From positions 608,001-672,000 of the forward strand of contig CBDDCK010000005.1 in NCBI GenBank assembly GCA_965225855.1: a stretch of DNA of 64,000 nt. Reading direction: 5' to 3'. Below are positions 53,108 to 64,000 of the stretch, one piece after another. This DNA is from Spirochaetia bacterium. GTDB taxonomy: Bacteria; Spirochaetota; Spirochaetia; SP-2023. Position 1 is the first letter of the stretch, and the number at the start of each line of letters is the position of its first letter. The translations under genes and the position numbers were made by a program. The notes under the pieces were generated by a model. The model had not been told where the DNA came from. It searched no databases and worked only from the letters and a program-made list of their open reading frames with translations.

Positions 53108-53378
53108 ATGGCAAAAAGAAAGATATATCGATACAAGCAATTCATGCATGTTTTAAAAGAATATCTTGTTATAAAAGTGGTTTATATTGGAATAACAAAC
53201 AATCCAGAAAGACGAGAAAGGGAACATTGCTTAGATGGTAAAAAATTCTCGCATATGAAAGTAGTTTCTATAAGAAGAATGACAAAAGCGGGTGCGAAAA
53301 AAGAGAAGCGAAAAGGTTGGCGCGATATAGAAAAAACCAAGGGAAAATCCCACATATAACAAAAATTCTAACGGTTAA
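53108..53378 (+). pseudogene. Small GIY-YIG-like nuclease, probably frameshifted near the 3' end
   Basis: VVYIGITNNPERREREH; the C-terminus reads more plausibly (REAKRLARYRKNQG, then NPTYNKNSNG-stop) after two shifts at A-runs. Confidence 0.55.
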
Positions 53379-53700
53379 AATTTAGAGCAAATATAAAAAG
53401 AGCGGTTGCGTTGCGTATGATCGTACTAAACATTTACGATTTTTTGCAATTTTTTGAGACTGCCACAGGCTCGTTGGGAAATCCCTAGGTTGCAAATCAA
53501 AAAAGCTAGTAAGGTTTTGGGCAAAAACCTTACTAGCTTTCTTTAAAAACCTTACTAGCTTTTTGAGACCATGCGCTGTTACCATGATATTTTGATACTT
53601 ACACCATCTTATACCATATTGCTGCCGACAATAACCCATATGCCGAAAAACAAAAATTCTAACGGTTAAAATTTAGAGCAAATATAGAAAGAGCAGTTGC
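53358..53700. repeat. 52-bp direct repeat pair (53358-53409 and 53649-53700, 2 mismatches), each copy ending in CRISPR-repeat-like sequence
   Basis: aacaaaaattctaacggttaaaatttagagcaaatata(a/g)aaagagc(g/a)gttgc. Confidence 0.9.
53498..53566. terminator. Hairpin with one left arm and two alternative right arms; possible bidirectional terminator
   Basis: aaagctagtaaggtttt pairs with aaaaccttactagcttt at 53524-53540 or 53546-53562. Confidence 0.6.
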
Positions 53701-53724
53701 ATACCTTTTTCATTTCGGTTTAAT
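53693..53724 (+). CRISPR. Detached degenerate CRISPR repeat
   Basis: gcagttgcatacctttttcatttcggtttaat equals the array repeat lacking the first GTT and one T. Confidence 0.92.
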
Positions 53725-54643: not shown

Positions 54644-57600
54644 GTTGCAGTTGCATACCTTTTTTCATTTCGGTTTAATAAATTCTTTAGGTCTTTAACT
54701 TTAGCAGTTGTTGCAGTTGCATACCTTTTTTCATTTCGGTTTAATCCGTTGCCACGAAACCTTACCACCAAGGGCGTTGCAGTTGCATACCTTTTTTCAT
54801 TTCGGTTTAATCCTTGGCTTTGATTTTTTGGATATTATTTAGTTGCAGTTGCATACCTTTTTTCATTTCGGTTTAATACCTCTACCCCTATCTCTCCCCC
54901 CACTCCTGTTGCAGTTGCATACCTTTTTTCATTTCGGTTTAATACCTCTACCCCTATCTCTCCCCCCACTCCTGTTGCAGTTGCATACCTTTTTTCATTT
55001 CGGTTTAATCTTATTCTGCTTCTTAAGTCTATTATAGGTGTTGCAGTTGCATACCTTTTTTCATTTCGGTTTAATTCAGACCCAACAGACAAACCATGAC
55101 CGGCAGTTGCAGTTGCATACCTTTTTTCATTTCGGTTTAATGATTTGGATTGTGAATTGTGGTAGGCTATAGTTGCAGTTGCATACCTTTTTTCATTTCG
55201 GTTTAATTGCGCTTAGTCGCAAGGTCAACATCCAGGCGTTGCAGTTGCATACCTTTTTTCATTTCGGTTTAATCCTCTGGAGGCCACAAAGTGTAAGGCA
55301 GTGGTTGCAGTTGCATACCTTTTTTCATTTCGGTTTAATTTACGGGAAATACAAAGATACAATATTTTTGTTGCAGTTGCATACCTTTTTTCATTTCGGT
55401 TTAATATGCCAATAACATCTGGACTATCTCTTTTTGTTGCAGTTGCATACCTTTTTTCATTTCGGTTTAATCCTATAGGGATCACTGGTGGCTCACCTCT
55501 TGTTGCAGTTGCATACCTTTTTTCATTTCGGTTTAATACACATCTTTAATCAAAAATCCTACTTCTTGTTGCAGTTGCATACCTTTTTTCATTTCGGTTT
55601 AATTTCACTGCGACCAAGGGCAATATCCTGTTGGTTGCAGTTGCATACCTTTTTTCATTTCGGTTTAATCTTTGGTGTAATCATAATGTCGAATTTCTGG
55701 TTGCAGTTGCATACCTTTTTTCATTTCGGTTTAATACAAGGTCACGACCGCGACTAGGCTTGTATGTTGCAGTTGCATACCTTTTTTCATTTCGGTTTAA
55801 TTATTCAAGTCACCATACTCACCGGCAGCATGTTGCAGTTGCATACCTTTTTTCATTTCGGTTTAATACAAGGTCACGACCGCGACTAGGCTTGTATGTT
55901 GCAGTTGCATACCTTTTTTCATTTCGGTTTAATTATTCAAGTCACCATACTCACCGGCAGCATGTTGCAGTTGCATACCTTTTTTCATTTCGGTTTAATA
56001 TTAAACGCAACCCCCATTCAGTCGACCTAGTTGCAGTTGCATACCTTTTTTCATTTCGGTTTAATACCATCGCCAGCAACAAGTCTCTTTGCGTGGTTGC
56101 AGTTGCATACCTTTTTTCATTTCGGTTTAATGATTCTACCATTCTCACGCCCTACAAGAGCGTTGCAGTTGCATACCTTTTTTCATTTCGGTTTAATGTG
56201 AGGTATTAACAGCCGATGATATAGTTAGTTGCAGTTGCATACCTTTTTTCATTTCGGTTTAATTTGTCAGCCCAAATTGTTCTTTTGTATTATGTTGCAG
56301 TTGCATACCTTTTTTCATTTCGGTTTAATTATGCGCCCGTGATCTACAATATTATGGTTGTTGCAGTTGCATACCTTTTTTCATTTCGGTTTAATAGAAA
56401 TATCTCTAAGCATATTAAAAATCATGTTGCAGTTGCATACCTTTTTTCATTTCGGTTTAATTCTCTTTCGATACGATGCATCCATTCTTTAGTTGCAGTT
56501 GCATACCTTTTTTCATTTCGGTTTAATAGTAGACATATGCATAACTTTGCCAAGTATGTTGCAGTTGCATACCTTTTTTCATTTCGGTTTAATTTTGTGA
56601 ATGGTCCAGTGTCTGTATTCGTTGTTGCAGTTGCATACCTTTTTTCATTTCGGTTTAATAATTACAACATTCATCGGCAATAAATAAGAGTTGCAGTTGC
56701 ATACCTTTTTTCATTTCGGTTTAATCATTGTACCCTGCGGTGTACGATCAACATAGTTGCAGTTGCATACCTTTTTTCATTTCGGTTTAATTCCAGGAGT
56801 AACCATAACAGAACCCTTAGCGTTGCAGTTGCATACCTTTTTTCATTTCGGTTTAATCATTGTACCCTGCGGTGTACGATCAACATAGTTGCAGTTGCAT
56901 ACCTTTTTTCATTTCGGTTTAATTCCAGGAGTAACCATAACAGAACCCTTAGCGTTGCAGTTGCATACCTTTTTTCATTTCGGTTTAATCATTGTACCCT
57001 GCGGTGTACGATCAACATAGTTGCAGTTGCATACCTTTTTTCATTTCGGTTTAATTCCAGGAGTAACCATAACAGAACCCTTAGCGTTGCAGTTGCATAC
57101 CTTTTTTCATTTCGGTTTAATCATTGTACCCTGCGGTGTACGATCAACATAGTTGCAGTTGCATACCTTTTTTCATTTCGGTTTAATTCCAGGAGTAACC
57201 ATAACAGAACCCTTAGCGTTGCAGTTGCATACCTTTTTTCATTTCGGTTTAATCATTGTACCCTGCGGTGTACGATCAACATAGTTGCAGTTGCATACCT
57301 TTTTTCATTTCGGTTTAATAGTCTTAGGAATGGAGTGGGAAGTCTGAAGGTTGCAGTTGCATACCTTTTTTCATTTCGGTTTAATATTTTTGCCCGTTGT
57401 TTTGCTTTTATTGTGGTTGCAGTTGCATACCTTTTTTCATTTCGGTTTAATAAATTTGCCTGTTTTATATTCTCGTAGTACGTTGCAGTTGCATACCTTT
57501 TTTCATTTCGGTTTAATTGGAAGTCTTGGCTGGTGAAATTGTTAAATGTTGCAGTTGCATACCTTTTTTCATTTCGGTTTAATTGCTTTTTCTTTTTCCT

Positions 57601-60600
57601 GTGTTTTTTCTTGGTTGCAGTTGCATACCTTTTTTCATTTCGGTTTAATTTAGTGAGTGTCTTATTGCCGTCTTGATGGGTTGCAGTTGCATACCTTTTT
57701 TCATTTCGGTTTAATTCGATATTCTAGGCGCTAGTAACGCAGCTGTTGCAGTTGCATACCTTTTTTCATTTCGGTTTAATGCACTGATGCATAAATAGCT
57801 AGGTTTATCGGTTGCAGTTGCATACCTTTTTTCATTTCGGTTTAATTCGATATTCTAGGCGCTAGTAACGCAGCTGTTGCAGTTGCATACCTTTTTTCAT
57901 TTCGGTTTAATGCACTGATGCATAAATAGCTAGGTTTATCGGTTGCAGTTGCATACCTTTTTTCATTTCGGTTTAATTCGATATTCTAGGCGCTAGTAAC
58001 GCAGCTGTTGCAGTTGCATACCTTTTTTCATTTCGGTTTAATCCTCTGGTAATTCTCCAAGGCTTCGATGCAGTTGCAGTTGCATACCTTTTTTCATTTC
58101 GGTTTAATCCTCTGGTAATTCTCCAAGGCTTCGATGCAGTTGCAGTTGCATACCTTTTTTCATTTCGGTTTAATTTTTAGGTCGTGATGGTGAAGAGCTG
58201 GAAGGTTGCAGTTGCATACCTTTTTTCATTTCGGTTTAATTAAACAATATTAAAGGCAAGTTTATCTTGTGTTGCAGTTGCATACCTTTTTTCATTTCGG
58301 TTTAATAAAATCCAAACAAATCATTCAACAAAACAAGTTGCAGTTGCATACCTTTTTTCATTTCGGTTTAATTTCTGGGATATGATCAAGCGTTTCGCTG
58401 GCGTTGCAGTTGCATACCTTTTTTCATTTCGGTTTAATCCGTAGAGACAACATTATGAATAAGCGAAGGTTGCAGTTGCATACCTTTTTTCATTTCGGTT
58501 TAATAGTAGTAACAAGACCAAAATGAACATTTCCGTTGCAGTTGCATACCTTTTTTCATTTCGGTTTAATAGTAAAACCTCCTACGTCTGCGCATAAAAT
58601 GTTGCAGTTGCATACCTTTTTTCATTTCGGTTTAATATAATTATTTTATTCTCCACCCCTATAAAAGTTGCAGTTGCATACCTTTTTTCATTTCGGTTTA
58701 ATTGTGGCAATTGCCCAATTCGGGATATTTTCGTTGCAGTTGCATACCTTTTTTCATTTCGGTTTAATTAGCAGACCGTAAGGACTTACCAAGAGCTTGT
58801 TGCAGTTGCATACCTTTTTTCATTTCGGTTTAATTAAAAAGGTTGTTACGAGCACTGTAGAACAGTTGCAGTTGCATACCTTTTTTCATTTCGGTTTAAT
58901 TTAAGCGTTGCTGGGCTAAAGGTAATGTGTTGCAGTTGCATACCTTTTTTCATTTCGGTTTAATTGTAATTTCTACTGCTGTAGATTAGATAAAGTTGCA
59001 GTTGCATACCTTTTTTCATTTCGGTTTAATTGTAATTTCTACTGCTGTAGATTAGATAAAGTTGCAGTTGCATACCTTTTTTCATTTCGGTTTAATAGCC
59101 TTTACCAAGTTCTTCCACCCAATCATGTTGCAGTTGCATACCTTTTTTCATTTCGGTTTAATTGACCCGTCAACAGGTCAGTTTCGGCCTTAGTTGCAGT
59201 TGCATACCTTTTTTCATTTCGGTTTAATATATAAATGCTAAGTAATACCTCCGAATTAGTTGCAGTTGCATACCTTTTTTCATTTCGGTTTAATAATAGC
59301 AATTGGACAACCGAAAGCAAAGGGTTGCAGTTGCATACCTTTTTTCATTTCGGTTTAATAGCCTTTACCAAGTTCTTCCACCCAATCATGTTGCAGTTGC
59401 ATACCTTTTTTCATTTCGGTTTAATTGACCCGTCAACAGGTCAGTTTCGGCCTTAGTTGCAGTTGCATACCTTTTTTCATTTCGGTTTAATATATAAATG
59501 CTAAGTAATACCTCCGAATTAGTTGCAGTTGCATACCTTTTTTCATTTCGGTTTAATGAAAACCTTGAGTAACATAAACCGGTGTAGGTTGCAGTTGCAT
59601 ACCTTTTTTCATTTCGGTTTAATATAAAAAAGCTCGGCCTGCTTGTTCAGTGTGTTGCAGTTGCATACCTTTTTTCATTTCGGTTTAATAGCCCCAGTCG
59701 TTTTTTATGAATGTTTTGAGTTGCAGTTGCATACCTTTTTTCATTTCGGTTTAATCCCAATACTACCCAAATCTCCCTCATCCTTGTTGCAGTTGCATAC
59801 CTTTTTTCATTTCGGTTTAATCCTAATACCACCCAAATCTCTCTCATTCTTGTTGCAGTTGCATACCTTTTTTCATTTCGGTTTAATCTAGGTCTGTATT
59901 TGATCTATCTCATTCTGGTTGCAGTTGCATACCTTTTTTCATTTCGGTTTAATATTTGTAGATTGTTCTACCATAGAAGATTGGTTGCAGTTGCATACCT
60001 TTTTTCATTTCGGTTTAATAATACCGATTATCTACAGACTGGCAAGCGAGTTGCAGTTGCATACCTTTTTTCATTTCGGTTTAATATTTGTAGATTGTTC
60101 TACCATAGAAGATTGGTTGCAGTTGCATACCTTTTTTCATTTCGGTTTAATAATACCGATTATCTACAGACTGGCAAGCGAGTTGCAGTTGCATACCTTT
60201 TTTCATTTCGGTTTAATATTTGTAGATTGTTCTACCATAGAAGATTGGTTGCAGTTGCATACCTTTTTTCATTTCGGTTTAATAATACCGATTATCTACA
60301 GACTGGCAAGCGAGTTGCAGTTGCATACCTTTTTTCATTTCGGTTTAATAGCCCCAGTCGTTTTTTATGAATGTTTTGAGTTGCAGTTGCATACCTTTTT
60401 TCATTTCGGTTTAATCCCAATACTACCCAAATCTCCCTCATCCTTGTTGCAGTTGCATACCTTTTTTCATTTCGGTTTAATATAATACTTACTCCATTGT
60501 GTAAGGCTGGGGGTTGCAGTTGCATACCTTTTTTCATTTCGGTTTAATGTGTATCATAGTAGGTCTTGAATCTAGGTGGTTGCAGTTGCATACCTTTTTT

Positions 60601-63600
60601 CATTTCGGTTTAATCCAACCAAGCAATCGCAGCAAAACTGCCAGGTTGCAGTTGCATACCTTTTTTCATTTCGGTTTAATAAAATAATCTTTACCCCAGC
60701 AACGAGTCTGGTTGCAGTTGCATACCTTTTTTCATTTCGGTTTAATGCATGGACAAGAGAATGCCGCAGAAACCTTGTTGCAGTTGCATACCTTTTTTCA
60801 TTTCGGTTTAATCCACAGAACAAAAACCTAAGACTTGGTTGGGTTGCAGTTGCATACCTTTTTTCATTTCGGTTTAATAGATATAAGATGCGGATTGCGC
60901 TTAGTCGCGTTGCAGTTGCATACCTTTTTTCATTTCGGTTTAATATTCCTGCCAAAATAGCGCCTATAGCCATAGTTGCAGTTGCATACCTTTTTTCATT
61001 TCGGTTTAATCATAACATGATCGATATGATGGCGCATTTTGTTGCAGTTGCATACCTTTTTTCATTTCGGTTTAATACTCTTAGGAATAGTATGAGAAGT
61101 CTGTAGGTTGCAGTTGCATACCTTTTTTCATTTCGGTTTAATTTTTTCTTCCGTGCTTATTAATATTTTATTGTTGCAGTTGCATACCTTTTTTCATTTC
61201 GGTTTAATATTTATGTTGCATATAACAACCTCCTATAAGTTGCAGTTGCATACCTTTTTTCATTTCGGTTTAATCTTCTCAGCCAATTCACGTTGATGAT
61301 TCTTGTTGCAGTTGCATACCTTTTTTCATTTCGGTTTAATACCATGACCGGCCATCGTGCCCTGCGGTGTGTTGCAGTTGCATACCTTTTTTCATTTCGG
61401 TTTAATCAGACCAAGCAGACCATCGGACTTAATCCTGTTGCAGTTGCATACCTTTTTTCATTTCGGTTTAATAAATAGATTCTGGTCTCTATAGAATTCC
61501 TTGTTGCAGTTGCATACCTTTTTTCATTTCGGTTTAATAATAGCCTGATCCAAAGGAAGATCACCTTCGTTGCAGTTGCATACCTTTTTTCATTTCGGTT
61601 TAATGAGACTACCGGCTTCATATTTGGGCTTTGAGTTGCAGTTGCATACCTTTTTTCATTTCGGTTTAATAAATAGATTCTGGTCTCTATAGAATTCCTT
61701 GTTGCAGTTGCATACCTTTTTTCATTTCGGTTTAATAATAGCCTGATCCAAAGGAAGATCACCTTCGTTGCAGTTGCATACCTTTTTTCATTTCGGTTTA
61801 ATGAGACTACCGGCTTCATATTTGGGCTTTGAGTTGCAGTTGCATACCTTTTTTCATTTCGGTTTAATATTTTCACAAAACCTTCACACTCACTCTCTGT
61901 TGCAGTTGCATACCTTTTTTCATTTCGGTTTAATAGTAAAATCATAAAGGATAAAGTAATATTAGTTGCAGTTGCATACCTTTTTTCATTTCGGTTTAAT
62001 ACCCCAACAACGAACCTGAAGATCGTAAGTGTTGCAGTTGCATACCTTTTTTCATTTCGGTTTAATCCTACAACCCTTCACAACTCACTCATAATCGTTG
62101 CAGTTGCATACCTTTTTTCATTTCGGTTTAATTTATACTGGCGCTAATGTTGGTGAGGATGTGTTGCAGTTGCATACCTTTTTTCATTTCGGTTTAATGA
62201 GACTACCGGATTCATATCTGGAGCTTGCGTTGCAGTTGCATACCTTTTTTCATTTCGGTTTAATAATTCTTAGATAATATCCATTTAGGGCTAAGTTGCA
62301 GTTGCATACCTTTTTTCATTTCGGTTTAATTAGTCATAAACAAACTTTCTAAAGAATATTGTTGCAGTTGCATACCTTTTTTCATTTCGGTTTAATTTTC
62401 TGGTGGTGTGGGCTCGGCAAAATCCAGTTGCAGTTGCATACCTTTTTTCATTTCGGTTTAATAATGATCAGCGCCCAACCAGATAACTTTGTGTTGCAGT
62501 TGCATACCTTTTTTCATTTCGGTTTAATTTTCTGGTGGTGTGGGCTCGGCAAAATCCAGTTGCAGTTGCATACCTTTTTTCATTTCGGTTTAATTTTGCT
62601 TTCTTGAATCTGCTTGTATTTTAGGTTGCAGTTGCATACCTTTTTTCATTTCGGTTTAATTTTGCTTTCTTGAATCTGCTTGTATTTTAGGTTGCAGTTG
62701 CATACCTTTTTTCATTTCGGTTTAATTCGGAAACAGTTATGCCAGTAGCATTGGAAGTTGCAGTTGCATACCTTTTTTCATTTCGGTTTAATACGATCAA
62801 CCTCGGCTTGAATCTGCTTGTATTTTAGGTTGCAGTTGCATACCTTTTTTCATTTCGGTTTAATCTACCCAAATGCCAATAATCATAAGTAGTAGTTGCA
62901 GTTGCATACCTTTTTTCATTTCGGTTTAATTCAGCTAGCAGAGATTCATGATACAGTTCTGTTGCAGTTGCATACCTTTTTTCATTTCGGTTTAATCGAT
63001 CATGTATTAAAGCAATCTTCTCACGGGTTGCAGTTGCATACCTTTTTTCATTTCGGTTTAATAGGTCACTAACGCGGCGCTGTACAGAAGTGTTGCAGTT
63101 GCATACCTTTTTTCATTTCGGTTTAATAATCCAAACCATCGTGGTAGATGGCGTAGCGTTGCAGTTGCATACCTTTTTTCATTTCGGTTTAATATGAAGG
63201 TTTATTTTGTGCCTTATGGGCTTGTTGCAGTTGCATACCTTTTTTCATTTCGGTTTAATCTCATTTCTCTCATCCTTCACAACCTTCCAGTTGCAGTTGC
63301 ATACCTTTTTTCATTTCGGTTTAATATCAAAAATAGTTTTTTGAAGAGATTTCTGGTTGCAGTTGCATACCTTTTTTCATTTCGGTTTAATTCGCTACCA
63401 ACAGAAAGACCATGACCGGCAGTTGCAGTTGCATACCTTTTTTCATTTCGGTTTAATAAAGGCTAGATTTTCTAAGGTTGGGCCTTTGTTGCAGTTGCAT
63501 ACCTTTTTTCATTTCGGTTTAATAAATTTTTATCAAAATAATGGCCACCTTGCGTTGCAGTTGCATACCTTTTTTCATTTCGGTTTAATAGGAAACTTCT

Positions 63601-64000
63601 TTCCTTGACAAGGCATATTGTTGCAGTTGCATACCTTTTTTCATTTCGGTTTAATACTTAGATTTTTAAGTGCTTCTACAGGTGTGTTGCAGTTGCATAC
63701 CTTTTTTCATTTCGGTTTAATCTATTGATTATGGGCCTGTTGGGCTCTTGGGTTGCAGTTGCATACCTTTTTTCATTTCGGTTTAATTAAAAAATCGTCA
63801 ATGTCGCTACTGTGTCGGTTGCAGTTGCATACCTTTTTTCATTTCGGTTTAATCTTAAATTTGTAACTTTTTTATAATTTTTGGTTGCAGTTGCATACCT
63901 TTTTTCATTTCGGTTTAATCTGCTTAATTTTTTAGCTTGGAGACTTGTGTTGCAGTTGCATACCTTTTTTCATTTCGGTTTAATTTTATCAACATCTCCA
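54644..64000 (+). CRISPR. Large CRISPR array, type II-C-like, about 142 repeats; runs off the window end
   Basis: Invariant 36-nt repeat GTTGCAGTTGCATACCTTTTTTCATTTCGGTTTAAT; spacers mostly 30 nt (range 28-36); 66-bp period; resembles the Neisseria II-C repeat GTTGTAGCTCCCTTTCTCATTTCGCAGTGCTACAAT. Subtype and strand are inferred; no cas genes in window. Confidence 0.98.

Follow-up and report, generated by a model that had tools for sequence, protein, structure and literature searches.

The stretch of DNA analysed here (the window) comprises 64,000 nucleotides (nt) of contig 5 (C5) of a Spirochaetia genome (G000, the host), with window position 1 corresponding to C5 608001. Its right-hand end is occupied by a type II-C CRISPR array, and three of the distinct spacers in this array carry the handle with which the repeats of type V-A (Cas12a) systems end. 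The array, the spacers concerned and the adjacent genes are as follows (window positions unless prefixed C5).

54644..64000, onward to C5:675944 (whole array G000:C5:662644-675944), + strand: type II-C CRISPR array with a 36-nt repeat and 30-nt spacers
58965..58994, + strand: spacer 66 (s66); 3 nt, a full 19-nt V-A handle with loop GC, and an 8-nt guide stub starting TAGAT
59031..59060, + strand: spacer 67 (s67); exact tandem duplicate of s66
59954..59983, copies at 60086 and 60218, + strand: spacer 81 (s81); starts with a 7-nt handle end, a possible fourth case that lies within chance
63985..64000, ending at G000:C5:672014 (14 nt past the window), - strand: spacer 142 (s142); last 14 nt of a handle with loop GG, and a 16-nt guide stub
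C5:675813-675842, outside the window, - strand: spacer 200 (s200); 5 nt, a full handle, and a 6-nt stub starting TAGAT
C5:676614-681457, outside the window, - strand: cas2-cas1-cas9, as open reading frames (ORFs), with cas1 assigned to cas1_NMENI above the cut-off
C5:681539-681674, + strand: candidate trans-activating CRISPR RNA (tracrRNA), recognized by repeat pairing and a 3' hairpin with a U-tract

The array holds 202 repeats and 201 spacers, 171 of which are distinct. Because cas2, cas1 (cas1_NMENI) and cas9 lie next to it, the system was assigned to type II-C. Neither csn2 nor cas4 accompanies these genes, the repeat has 36 nt, a tracrRNA candidate is present, and RuvC and HNH motifs were found in the Cas9 protein of 1180 amino acids (aa). 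The tracrRNA candidate is predicted to pair with the + reading of the repeat at -39.9 kcal/mol, versus -29.9 for the mirror pairing, and then runs into a hairpin and U-tract; we therefore took the + strand as the probable CRISPR RNA (crRNA) strand. Overlaps between spacers suggest a Cas9 protospacer-adjacent motif (PAM) of approximately N4TC (3/4 flanks).

An earlier note on this DNA had reported a 30-nt spacer with a Cas12a handle, present twice in tandem at 58965-58994 and 59031-59060. Both copies are there, between exact 36-nt repeats, and the motif is a genuine V-A handle with an intact stem: s66 matches the end of the host V-A repeat at 19/20 positions, the sole difference lying in the loop, and the 5-bp handle stem is predicted to form in the spacer alone. 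The tandem arrangement, which the note had pointed out, is ordinary, as the array contains four adjacent duplicate pairs and 22/171 spacers are present in more than one copy. The number of handle spacers had been set too low. When each distinct spacer was scored for its perfect overlap with 17 fixed handle positions, s66 and s200 reached 17/17 and s142, in which the handle is cut by the spacer end, reached 12/12 of the fixed bases inside the spacer; s142 and s200 carry the handle on the - strand. The remaining 168/171 distinct spacers scored at most 5 and 200 shuffled sets at most 8. In the window the handle pattern has two matches against 0.01 expected (100 shuffles). No handle spacer was present among 285 spacers of the host V-A array (scores ≤7) or among 275 spacers of arrays in the related genomes G001 and G002 (≤5). 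The pattern is real, non-random and threefold. With the same scoring an overlap of at least 7 was reached in 29 of the 200 shuffled sets, which bears on s81. This spacer and its neighbour s82 (window 60020-60049) are triplicated as a block and each has a 7-nt handle end, neither being above chance alone.

The three spacers have different loops (GC in s66, GG in s142 and GT in s200), and they are separate acquisitions since they occupy array positions 66, 142 and 200 of 201. With PAM availability ignored, donors with one handle per 40 kb would yield 0.09 handle spacers (probability of three or more, 1e-4) and donors with one handle per 5 kb would yield 0.75 (0.04). To account for three, the donors must be small or carry more than one handle each, or such spacers must be selectively retained. 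The contexts of the three spacers have no genome copy outside the II-C array, and their protospacers were not found in viral contigs, metagenome contigs, genome contigs, 401 genomes of the class, phages or plasmids, so that we infer both the source of the spacers and the function of the element behind them. The best matches in metagenome contigs had 4 (s66), 3 (s200) and 6 (s142) mismatches, leaving out locus L173, which is cut by a contig edge. Nothing in the viral contigs matched the pattern derived from the spacer pair s148/s175 or the N-terminus of Cas12a.

Handles standing alone are common in viral DNA. Among the 120 loci listed from our scan of viral contigs there are at least 87 distinct solitary handle contexts with varied loops, some of which may be chance matches in coding DNA. 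The complete microvirus MK496734.1 (L219:2207-2265) carries an unannotated solitary V-A handle followed by a short stretch and a terminator-like hairpin, all behind a stop codon. What precedes the handle in s66 and s200 agrees with 0/42 distinct array repeats, and the loops GC and GG occur in 0/42 array repeats versus 3/87 solitary viral contexts among the matches listed, in a census of array repeats biased by several scans that fixed the first variable position of the loop as G.

Both s66 and s200 continue directly behind the handle with TAGAT, the pentamer with which the V-A repeat itself ends, there preceded by NTTG. It is enriched behind solitary viral handles: a scan for T[AG]GA, which was complete, showed it in 7/8 families, the seven being unrelated to one another (IMG/VR loci L292-L308 and L309-L328), an equally complete scan for N[AT]G[AT]T showed it in 8/14 solitary contexts of viral contigs, and among the matches listed it followed 3/87 solitary viral handles versus 0/459 array spacers (Fisher p 0.004); these viral scans share matches and are not mutually independent. 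In metagenomes it was found in 7/10 solitary versus 9/34 array contexts, with one family common to the viral set. The register is specific, AGAT lying at offset 1 in seven families and at offsets 0, 2, 3 and 4 in 0, 1, 0 and 1. Most sites are intergenic, before a ribosome site or a terminator and beside unrelated genes. TAGAT could be either a selected seed or a slippage product, and end duplications of 8 and 13 nt do occur (L322, L330). Three further ideas about such guides were discarded: a conserved target at cas12a starts (TTTV+TAGAT in 0/6 loci parsed, 11 examined), guides aimed at their own neighbourhood (no seed >8 nt apart from self-duplication), and a second repeat-aimed register with guides starting TACT (2/3 families in a five-locus scan, too few).

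Chromosomes contain solitary handles as well. Genome G401 has 12 dispersed ones in one chromosome (L279-L290; also L213 and L218), two with TAGAT. In most of them a -10-like box immediately precedes the handle; 20 nt of variable sequence and in many cases a terminator follow, and the usual position is just behind a small membrane- or coiled-coil-like gene. This genome also has a Cas12a match, a homologue (35%) of the host Cas12a3-like ORF described below and a short array, one junction of which is matched over 9 nt by the guide of L286, a suggestive and not significant agreement. At L191/L197 a solitary GG-loop handle precedes a cas12a-like gene and its guide has a 9-nt match with a TTTG PAM just upstream of that gene, an arrangement resembling CreR. 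In G002, dispersed intergenic repeats (L199:8866-14670 and L210:5138) hold the 3' part of a handle-like hairpin; the handle-like cluster of this genome (C1:786-793 kb) was rejected as a source, as it consists of dispersed intergenic repeats without the 5' part of the handle.

The note had proposed searching the genome for cas12a, and this search succeeded: an intact-looking cas12a is present on the same contig with a V-A array of 323 repeats.

C5:1074340-1094684, - strand: host V-A array; 323 repeats, all identical and with the handle at their end, and 322 spacers
L009:5918-9526 (G000:C5:1065917-1069525), directly behind cas12a: Cas12a3-like ORF of 1202 aa, named from its PDB matches

Host Cas12a is unusually long (1568 aa, with insertions), scores above the family cut-off and has RuvC motifs, which together with an array ending in the handle identifies the locus as type V-A. 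At this locus (C5:1094700-1094960) cas4 is a truncated 85-aa remnant and cas1 and cas2 are missing; the sole cas1 found in the genome is that of the II-C system, though the V-A array holds 322 spacers. Nothing near the cas genes exceeded the Rfam gathering score. The only PDB matches of the 1202-aa ORF are two Cas12a3 structures, 9HLX and 21WE (E 1e-52), and its three RuvC motifs are kept; it appears to be Cas12a3-like and may instead represent a different branch of the Cas12a2/a3/a4 group. The pair of cas12a and Cas12a3-like genes recurs in G002, one of three genomes of the same genus; besides cas12a it carries a 1202-aa ORF homologue (32%), ORFs of the size of cas4, cas1 and cas2, and an array. 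A comparison of the host LepA with PDB sequences offered no clue to the lineage. Of 23 overlapping spacer pairs, five join a II-C to a V-A spacer. Since many pairs differ only slightly from each other, the two arrays probably face one diverse invader family.

In a Cas12a crRNA, the bases behind the handle are the guide. The first 10 nt of the s142 stub equal positions +2 to +11 of host cas12a on the coding strand (13/16 ungapped over the whole stub), and the s66 stub matches the coding strand at +38 over 8/8 nt; both sites fall in the first 45 nt of the gene, that is, in its first codons and not in the promoter. Outside the arrays the s142 10-mer occurs five times in the genome and at 1/1768 ORF starts, the s66 8-mer occurs at 31/1768, and both are found at the cas12a start only. 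Control windows from other spacers matched the same 130-nt cas12a region in 17/17296 (10-mers) and 163/19108 (8-mers) cases, and at five other cas starts or leaders stub matches did not exceed 4 nt. No CreR target was found at host cas12a; the surroundings of the V-A locus contain only a single decayed repeat, and what follows the terminal repeat lacks a cas12a target.

We propose that the handle spacers are a Cas9 memory of solitary V-A repeat mimics, anti-CRISPR RNAs of the Racr or Cracr type, carried by mobile elements of this host, and we give this explanation a probability of roughly 0.55. It starts from what is observed, namely three handle spacers on both strands with three loops and flanks, in a host with an intact-looking V-A locus. 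That the handles came from solitary elements on mobile DNA, whatever their function, is rather probable, and of the V-A repeat contexts that the note had considered as sources we favour the solitary mimic carried by a mobile element. The donors would be phages or plasmids that are related to one another and carry an element consisting of the handle only, which would be transcribed, processed and loaded by Cas12a or the Cas12a3-like protein and so soak up the effector (the Racr mode); a guide of the s142 type, and perhaps of the s66 type, would hold Cas12a at the 5' end of the gene that encodes it (the Cracr mode). Cas9 could cut the conserved handle in the donor because the host's own repeats either mismatch the seed or have no PAM beside them, and a canonical handle would place T at position 5 of the s142 flank, in agreement with the putative PAM. 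The V-A array itself could presumably not take up such spacers. As the invader cannot freely change the handle, these spacers would tend to be retained, and one host immune system (Cas9) would guard the other (Cas12a).

Several observations weigh against this proposal. As no protospacer turned up in the collections searched and only 30 nt of each donor are visible, its mobile origin, solitary context, promoter and terminator are conjectural. The excess of handle spacers in the II-C array (3/171) over the V-A array (0/285) reaches p 0.052 only, and the approximate Cas9 PAM comes from just three of four overlaps. Six of the 171 distinct II-C spacers match the host chromosome exactly, all without the putative Cas9 PAM, and therefore this array also samples non-viral DNA. 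The bias of the loop census counts here too, as do the chromosomal handles of G401, the CreR-like chromosomal handle with loop GG (L191) and one terminal array repeat with loop GC (L216). The agreement with cas12a was found post hoc. The s200 stub matches the +38 site at only 5/6, s82 has an 11-nt chance match to the same site, and the cas12a start of G002 has no such stub site. Moreover, the PAMs at the two cas12a sites are TATA and TCTG instead of TTTV, although the residues of host Cas12a that align with the PAM-reading residues K548, N552 and K607 of AsCas12a are conserved. A relaxed TNTV PAM, which the two cas12a sites and two overlap flanks would fit, was rejected: it is unsupported because the PAM-aligned residues, K607 included, are conserved and the only flank that departs from TTTV is explicable as TTTG displaced by a slip of 2 nt. 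A PAM escape change in the host is conceivable.

The handle spacers might instead derive from chromosomes of other bacteria, from V-A junctions, CreR units or G401-like cassettes that arrived by transduction or uptake and were caught as a by-product of naive acquisition. One V-A array supplies hundreds of handles, which would explain three matches, the six exact chromosomal spacers show that chromosomal acquisition occurs, and some of the solitary handles in chromosomes are followed by TAGAT or have loop GG. We nevertheless regard foreign chromosomal DNA as an unlikely origin and this account as a whole as equally unlikely. It has to accommodate three different loops, two flanks unlike all 42 array repeats, and two spacers that share a TAGAT seen in none of the 459 array spacers. 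Most G401 cassettes have the -10-like box before the handle, which s66 and s200 lack, and when the array was compared by BLAST with G001-G005 no full-length II-C spacer match was present among the matches listed.

Mobile donors could also have carried the handle for another purpose, either as a guide unit (mini-array) in competition between viruses or as a captured scar at a former Cas12a target, and not as an inhibitor. Viral units with two handles do exist among the matches (L081, L115), and the end duplications of L322 and L330 would allow TAGAT to arise by slippage. We doubt this explanation. TTTV lies directly before the handle in only 4/87 solitary contexts among the matches listed, the 5-nt register is specific (seven families versus 0, 1, 0 and 1 at offsets 0, 2, 3 and 4), and two stubs match the start of host cas12a.

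The note had left open that the spacer came from a V-A array of the host chromosome, so that one CRISPR system targets another. On sequence comparison, the host V-A array is not the source of the handle spacers. The closest host junctions differ from s66, s142 and s200 at 4, 7 and 5 of 30 positions, always affecting the PAM-proximal 10 nt. It is true that s66 is 26/30 identical to at least four host junctions, a best match that arises because all 323 junctions share the handle, and that self-acquisition occurs in the II-C array. That the spacers were taken from the host array and the sequences then diverged by drift or array change is very improbable, given that all 323 host repeats are identical, that each of the three spacers would need different changes (4, 7 and 5 mismatches) and that the six true II-C self-spacers are exact matches. 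Cutting of the host V-A locus by Cas9 through these spacers is likewise not supported, owing to the seed mismatches and the missing PAM at the closest sites. Among host-array sites within 12 mismatches, the Cas9 PAM accompanies 0/167 for s142, 0/324 for s200 and 20/346 for s66, and the five of these s66 sites that were listed have 7-12 mismatches. Judged from these alignments, the host array is likely not cut.

Least credible of all is that the handles are kept so that Cas12a cuts the II-C transcript into chimeric guides for cross-regulation between the two systems: s66/67 do lie in the sense of the presumed crRNA strand and their hairpin can form, against which s142 and s200 run in the opposite sense, there is nothing unusual about tandem copies, the best TTTV-flanked seeds of the chimeric guide have only 9 nt at three unrelated genome sites, and the 96-nt two-spacer RNA is predicted to adopt a competing long-range fold. 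The nested Cas12a processing suggested in the note thus finds one of three handle spacers in the right sense and no TTTV-flanked seed above 9 nt, and looks like an incidental side effect at s66/67.

If the handle spacers do record solitary repeat mimics on mobile elements, three acquisitions from such an element by a natural array, with stubs that fit host cas12a, would be in situ evidence of the use of RNA anti-CRISPRs; in the available text of the papers cited below, those against type V-A were tested in reconstituted hosts. A second CRISPR type could then counter RNA anti-CRISPRs, the conserved handle being the weak spot of the invader, and mining non-V-A arrays for handle spacers would be a phage-free route to the discovery of such RNAs. 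TAGAT behind solitary handles is a sequence signature that we did not find in print and that is amenable to standard Cas12a assays. A Cas12a3-like effector would make a decoy with the shared handle useful against two effectors. A bolder extension is that widespread viral RNAs consisting of a handle and TAGAT aim Cas12a at the host V-A locus, at every repeat-spacer junction through the loop-supplied NTTG PAM and here also at the cas12a 5' end, and that II-C guards V-A by preferentially keeping spacers against an unchangeable element; we hold this to be doubtful.

Further features of the arrays were noted. To the left of the II-C array lies

53693..53724, + strand: orphan degenerate II-C repeat, ~950 nt left of the array

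together with a 52-nt direct repeat pair in the same region (window 53358-53724), and a membrane-protein-like gene stands between the orphan and the array. The right flank, between array and cas2 (L008:936-1610), holds a degenerate repeat and a near copy of array-flanking sequence ~620 nt past the last repeat. Within the array, s129 (window 63128-63157) is self-matching, with 8 exact copies and 93 within two mismatches in dispersed chromosomal repeats, none beside the expected PAM. The V-A spacer v47 (G000:C5:1091746) behaves similarly, with 48 exact copies in dispersed chromosomal repeats and none beside the expected PAM. Over-long hybrids, in which part of a neighbouring spacer is joined to other sequence, occur in both arrays: s124 (window 62793-62828) has 36 nt, and V-A spacer 79 (C5:1089738) has 54 nt, the second half matching C5:994400.

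Of the known RNA inhibitors, Racr elements are one close parallel to the postulated donor elements. RacrVA1-3 inhibit type V-A and, in the available text of PMC10651486, are full repeats corresponding to 33-36 of the 36 nt. The likeness lies in a V-A repeat mimic, presumably solitary and mobile, facing a V-A host, with the handle stem intact: s66 and s200 keep 17/17 fixed positions and the stem forms, and s142 shows the last 14 nt only. Unlike the full repeats of RacrVA1-3, the bases before the handle are here unlike the host repeat, so that the element appears handle-only over the 3-5 nt visible, and it is known through host spacers alone. CracrVA1, as far as the accessible part of bioRxiv 10.1101/2024.10.29.618823 describes it, is a phage handle plus guide that functions with a 10-nt match to the cas12a promoter. 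The present stubs resemble it in joining a handle to a guide with ~10 nt matching the 5' region of host cas12a. A Cracr guide is expected to match the promoter region of the cas gene over at least 9 PAM-proximal nt; here the s142 stub matches over 10 nt and the s66 stub over the 8 nt visible. For CracrVA1 the target is a promoter site beside a TTTA PAM, in imitation of a host CreR, whereas the sites here lie in the first codons behind TATA and TCTG, with neither a canonical TTTV PAM nor a guide resembling a host CreR target.

V-A CreR and standalone repeats, known from the portions available of bioRxiv 10.1101/2023.03.10.532045 and 10.1101/2023.03.03.530964, share the anatomy of a handle with a short guide and variant loops (compare L191); they are chromosomal and sit beside cas12a, whereas the three contexts described here are absent from the host chromosome. 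Ba1Cas12a3 binds the same crRNA pseudoknot according to the accessible text of PMC12851939, and the 1202-aa host ORF matches Cas12a3 structures. Cas12a3 is defined by its clade, a tRNA-loading domain and cleavage of tRNA tails, and the host ORF is a candidate by its sequence match. In a literature search that left most subscription journals outside its reach, nothing relevant was listed about spacers that a host directs at RNAs of this kind, or about TAGAT as a signature. Racr, Cracr, CreR and Cas12a3 were already known; what would be new here is host spacers against RNAs with a solitary handle.

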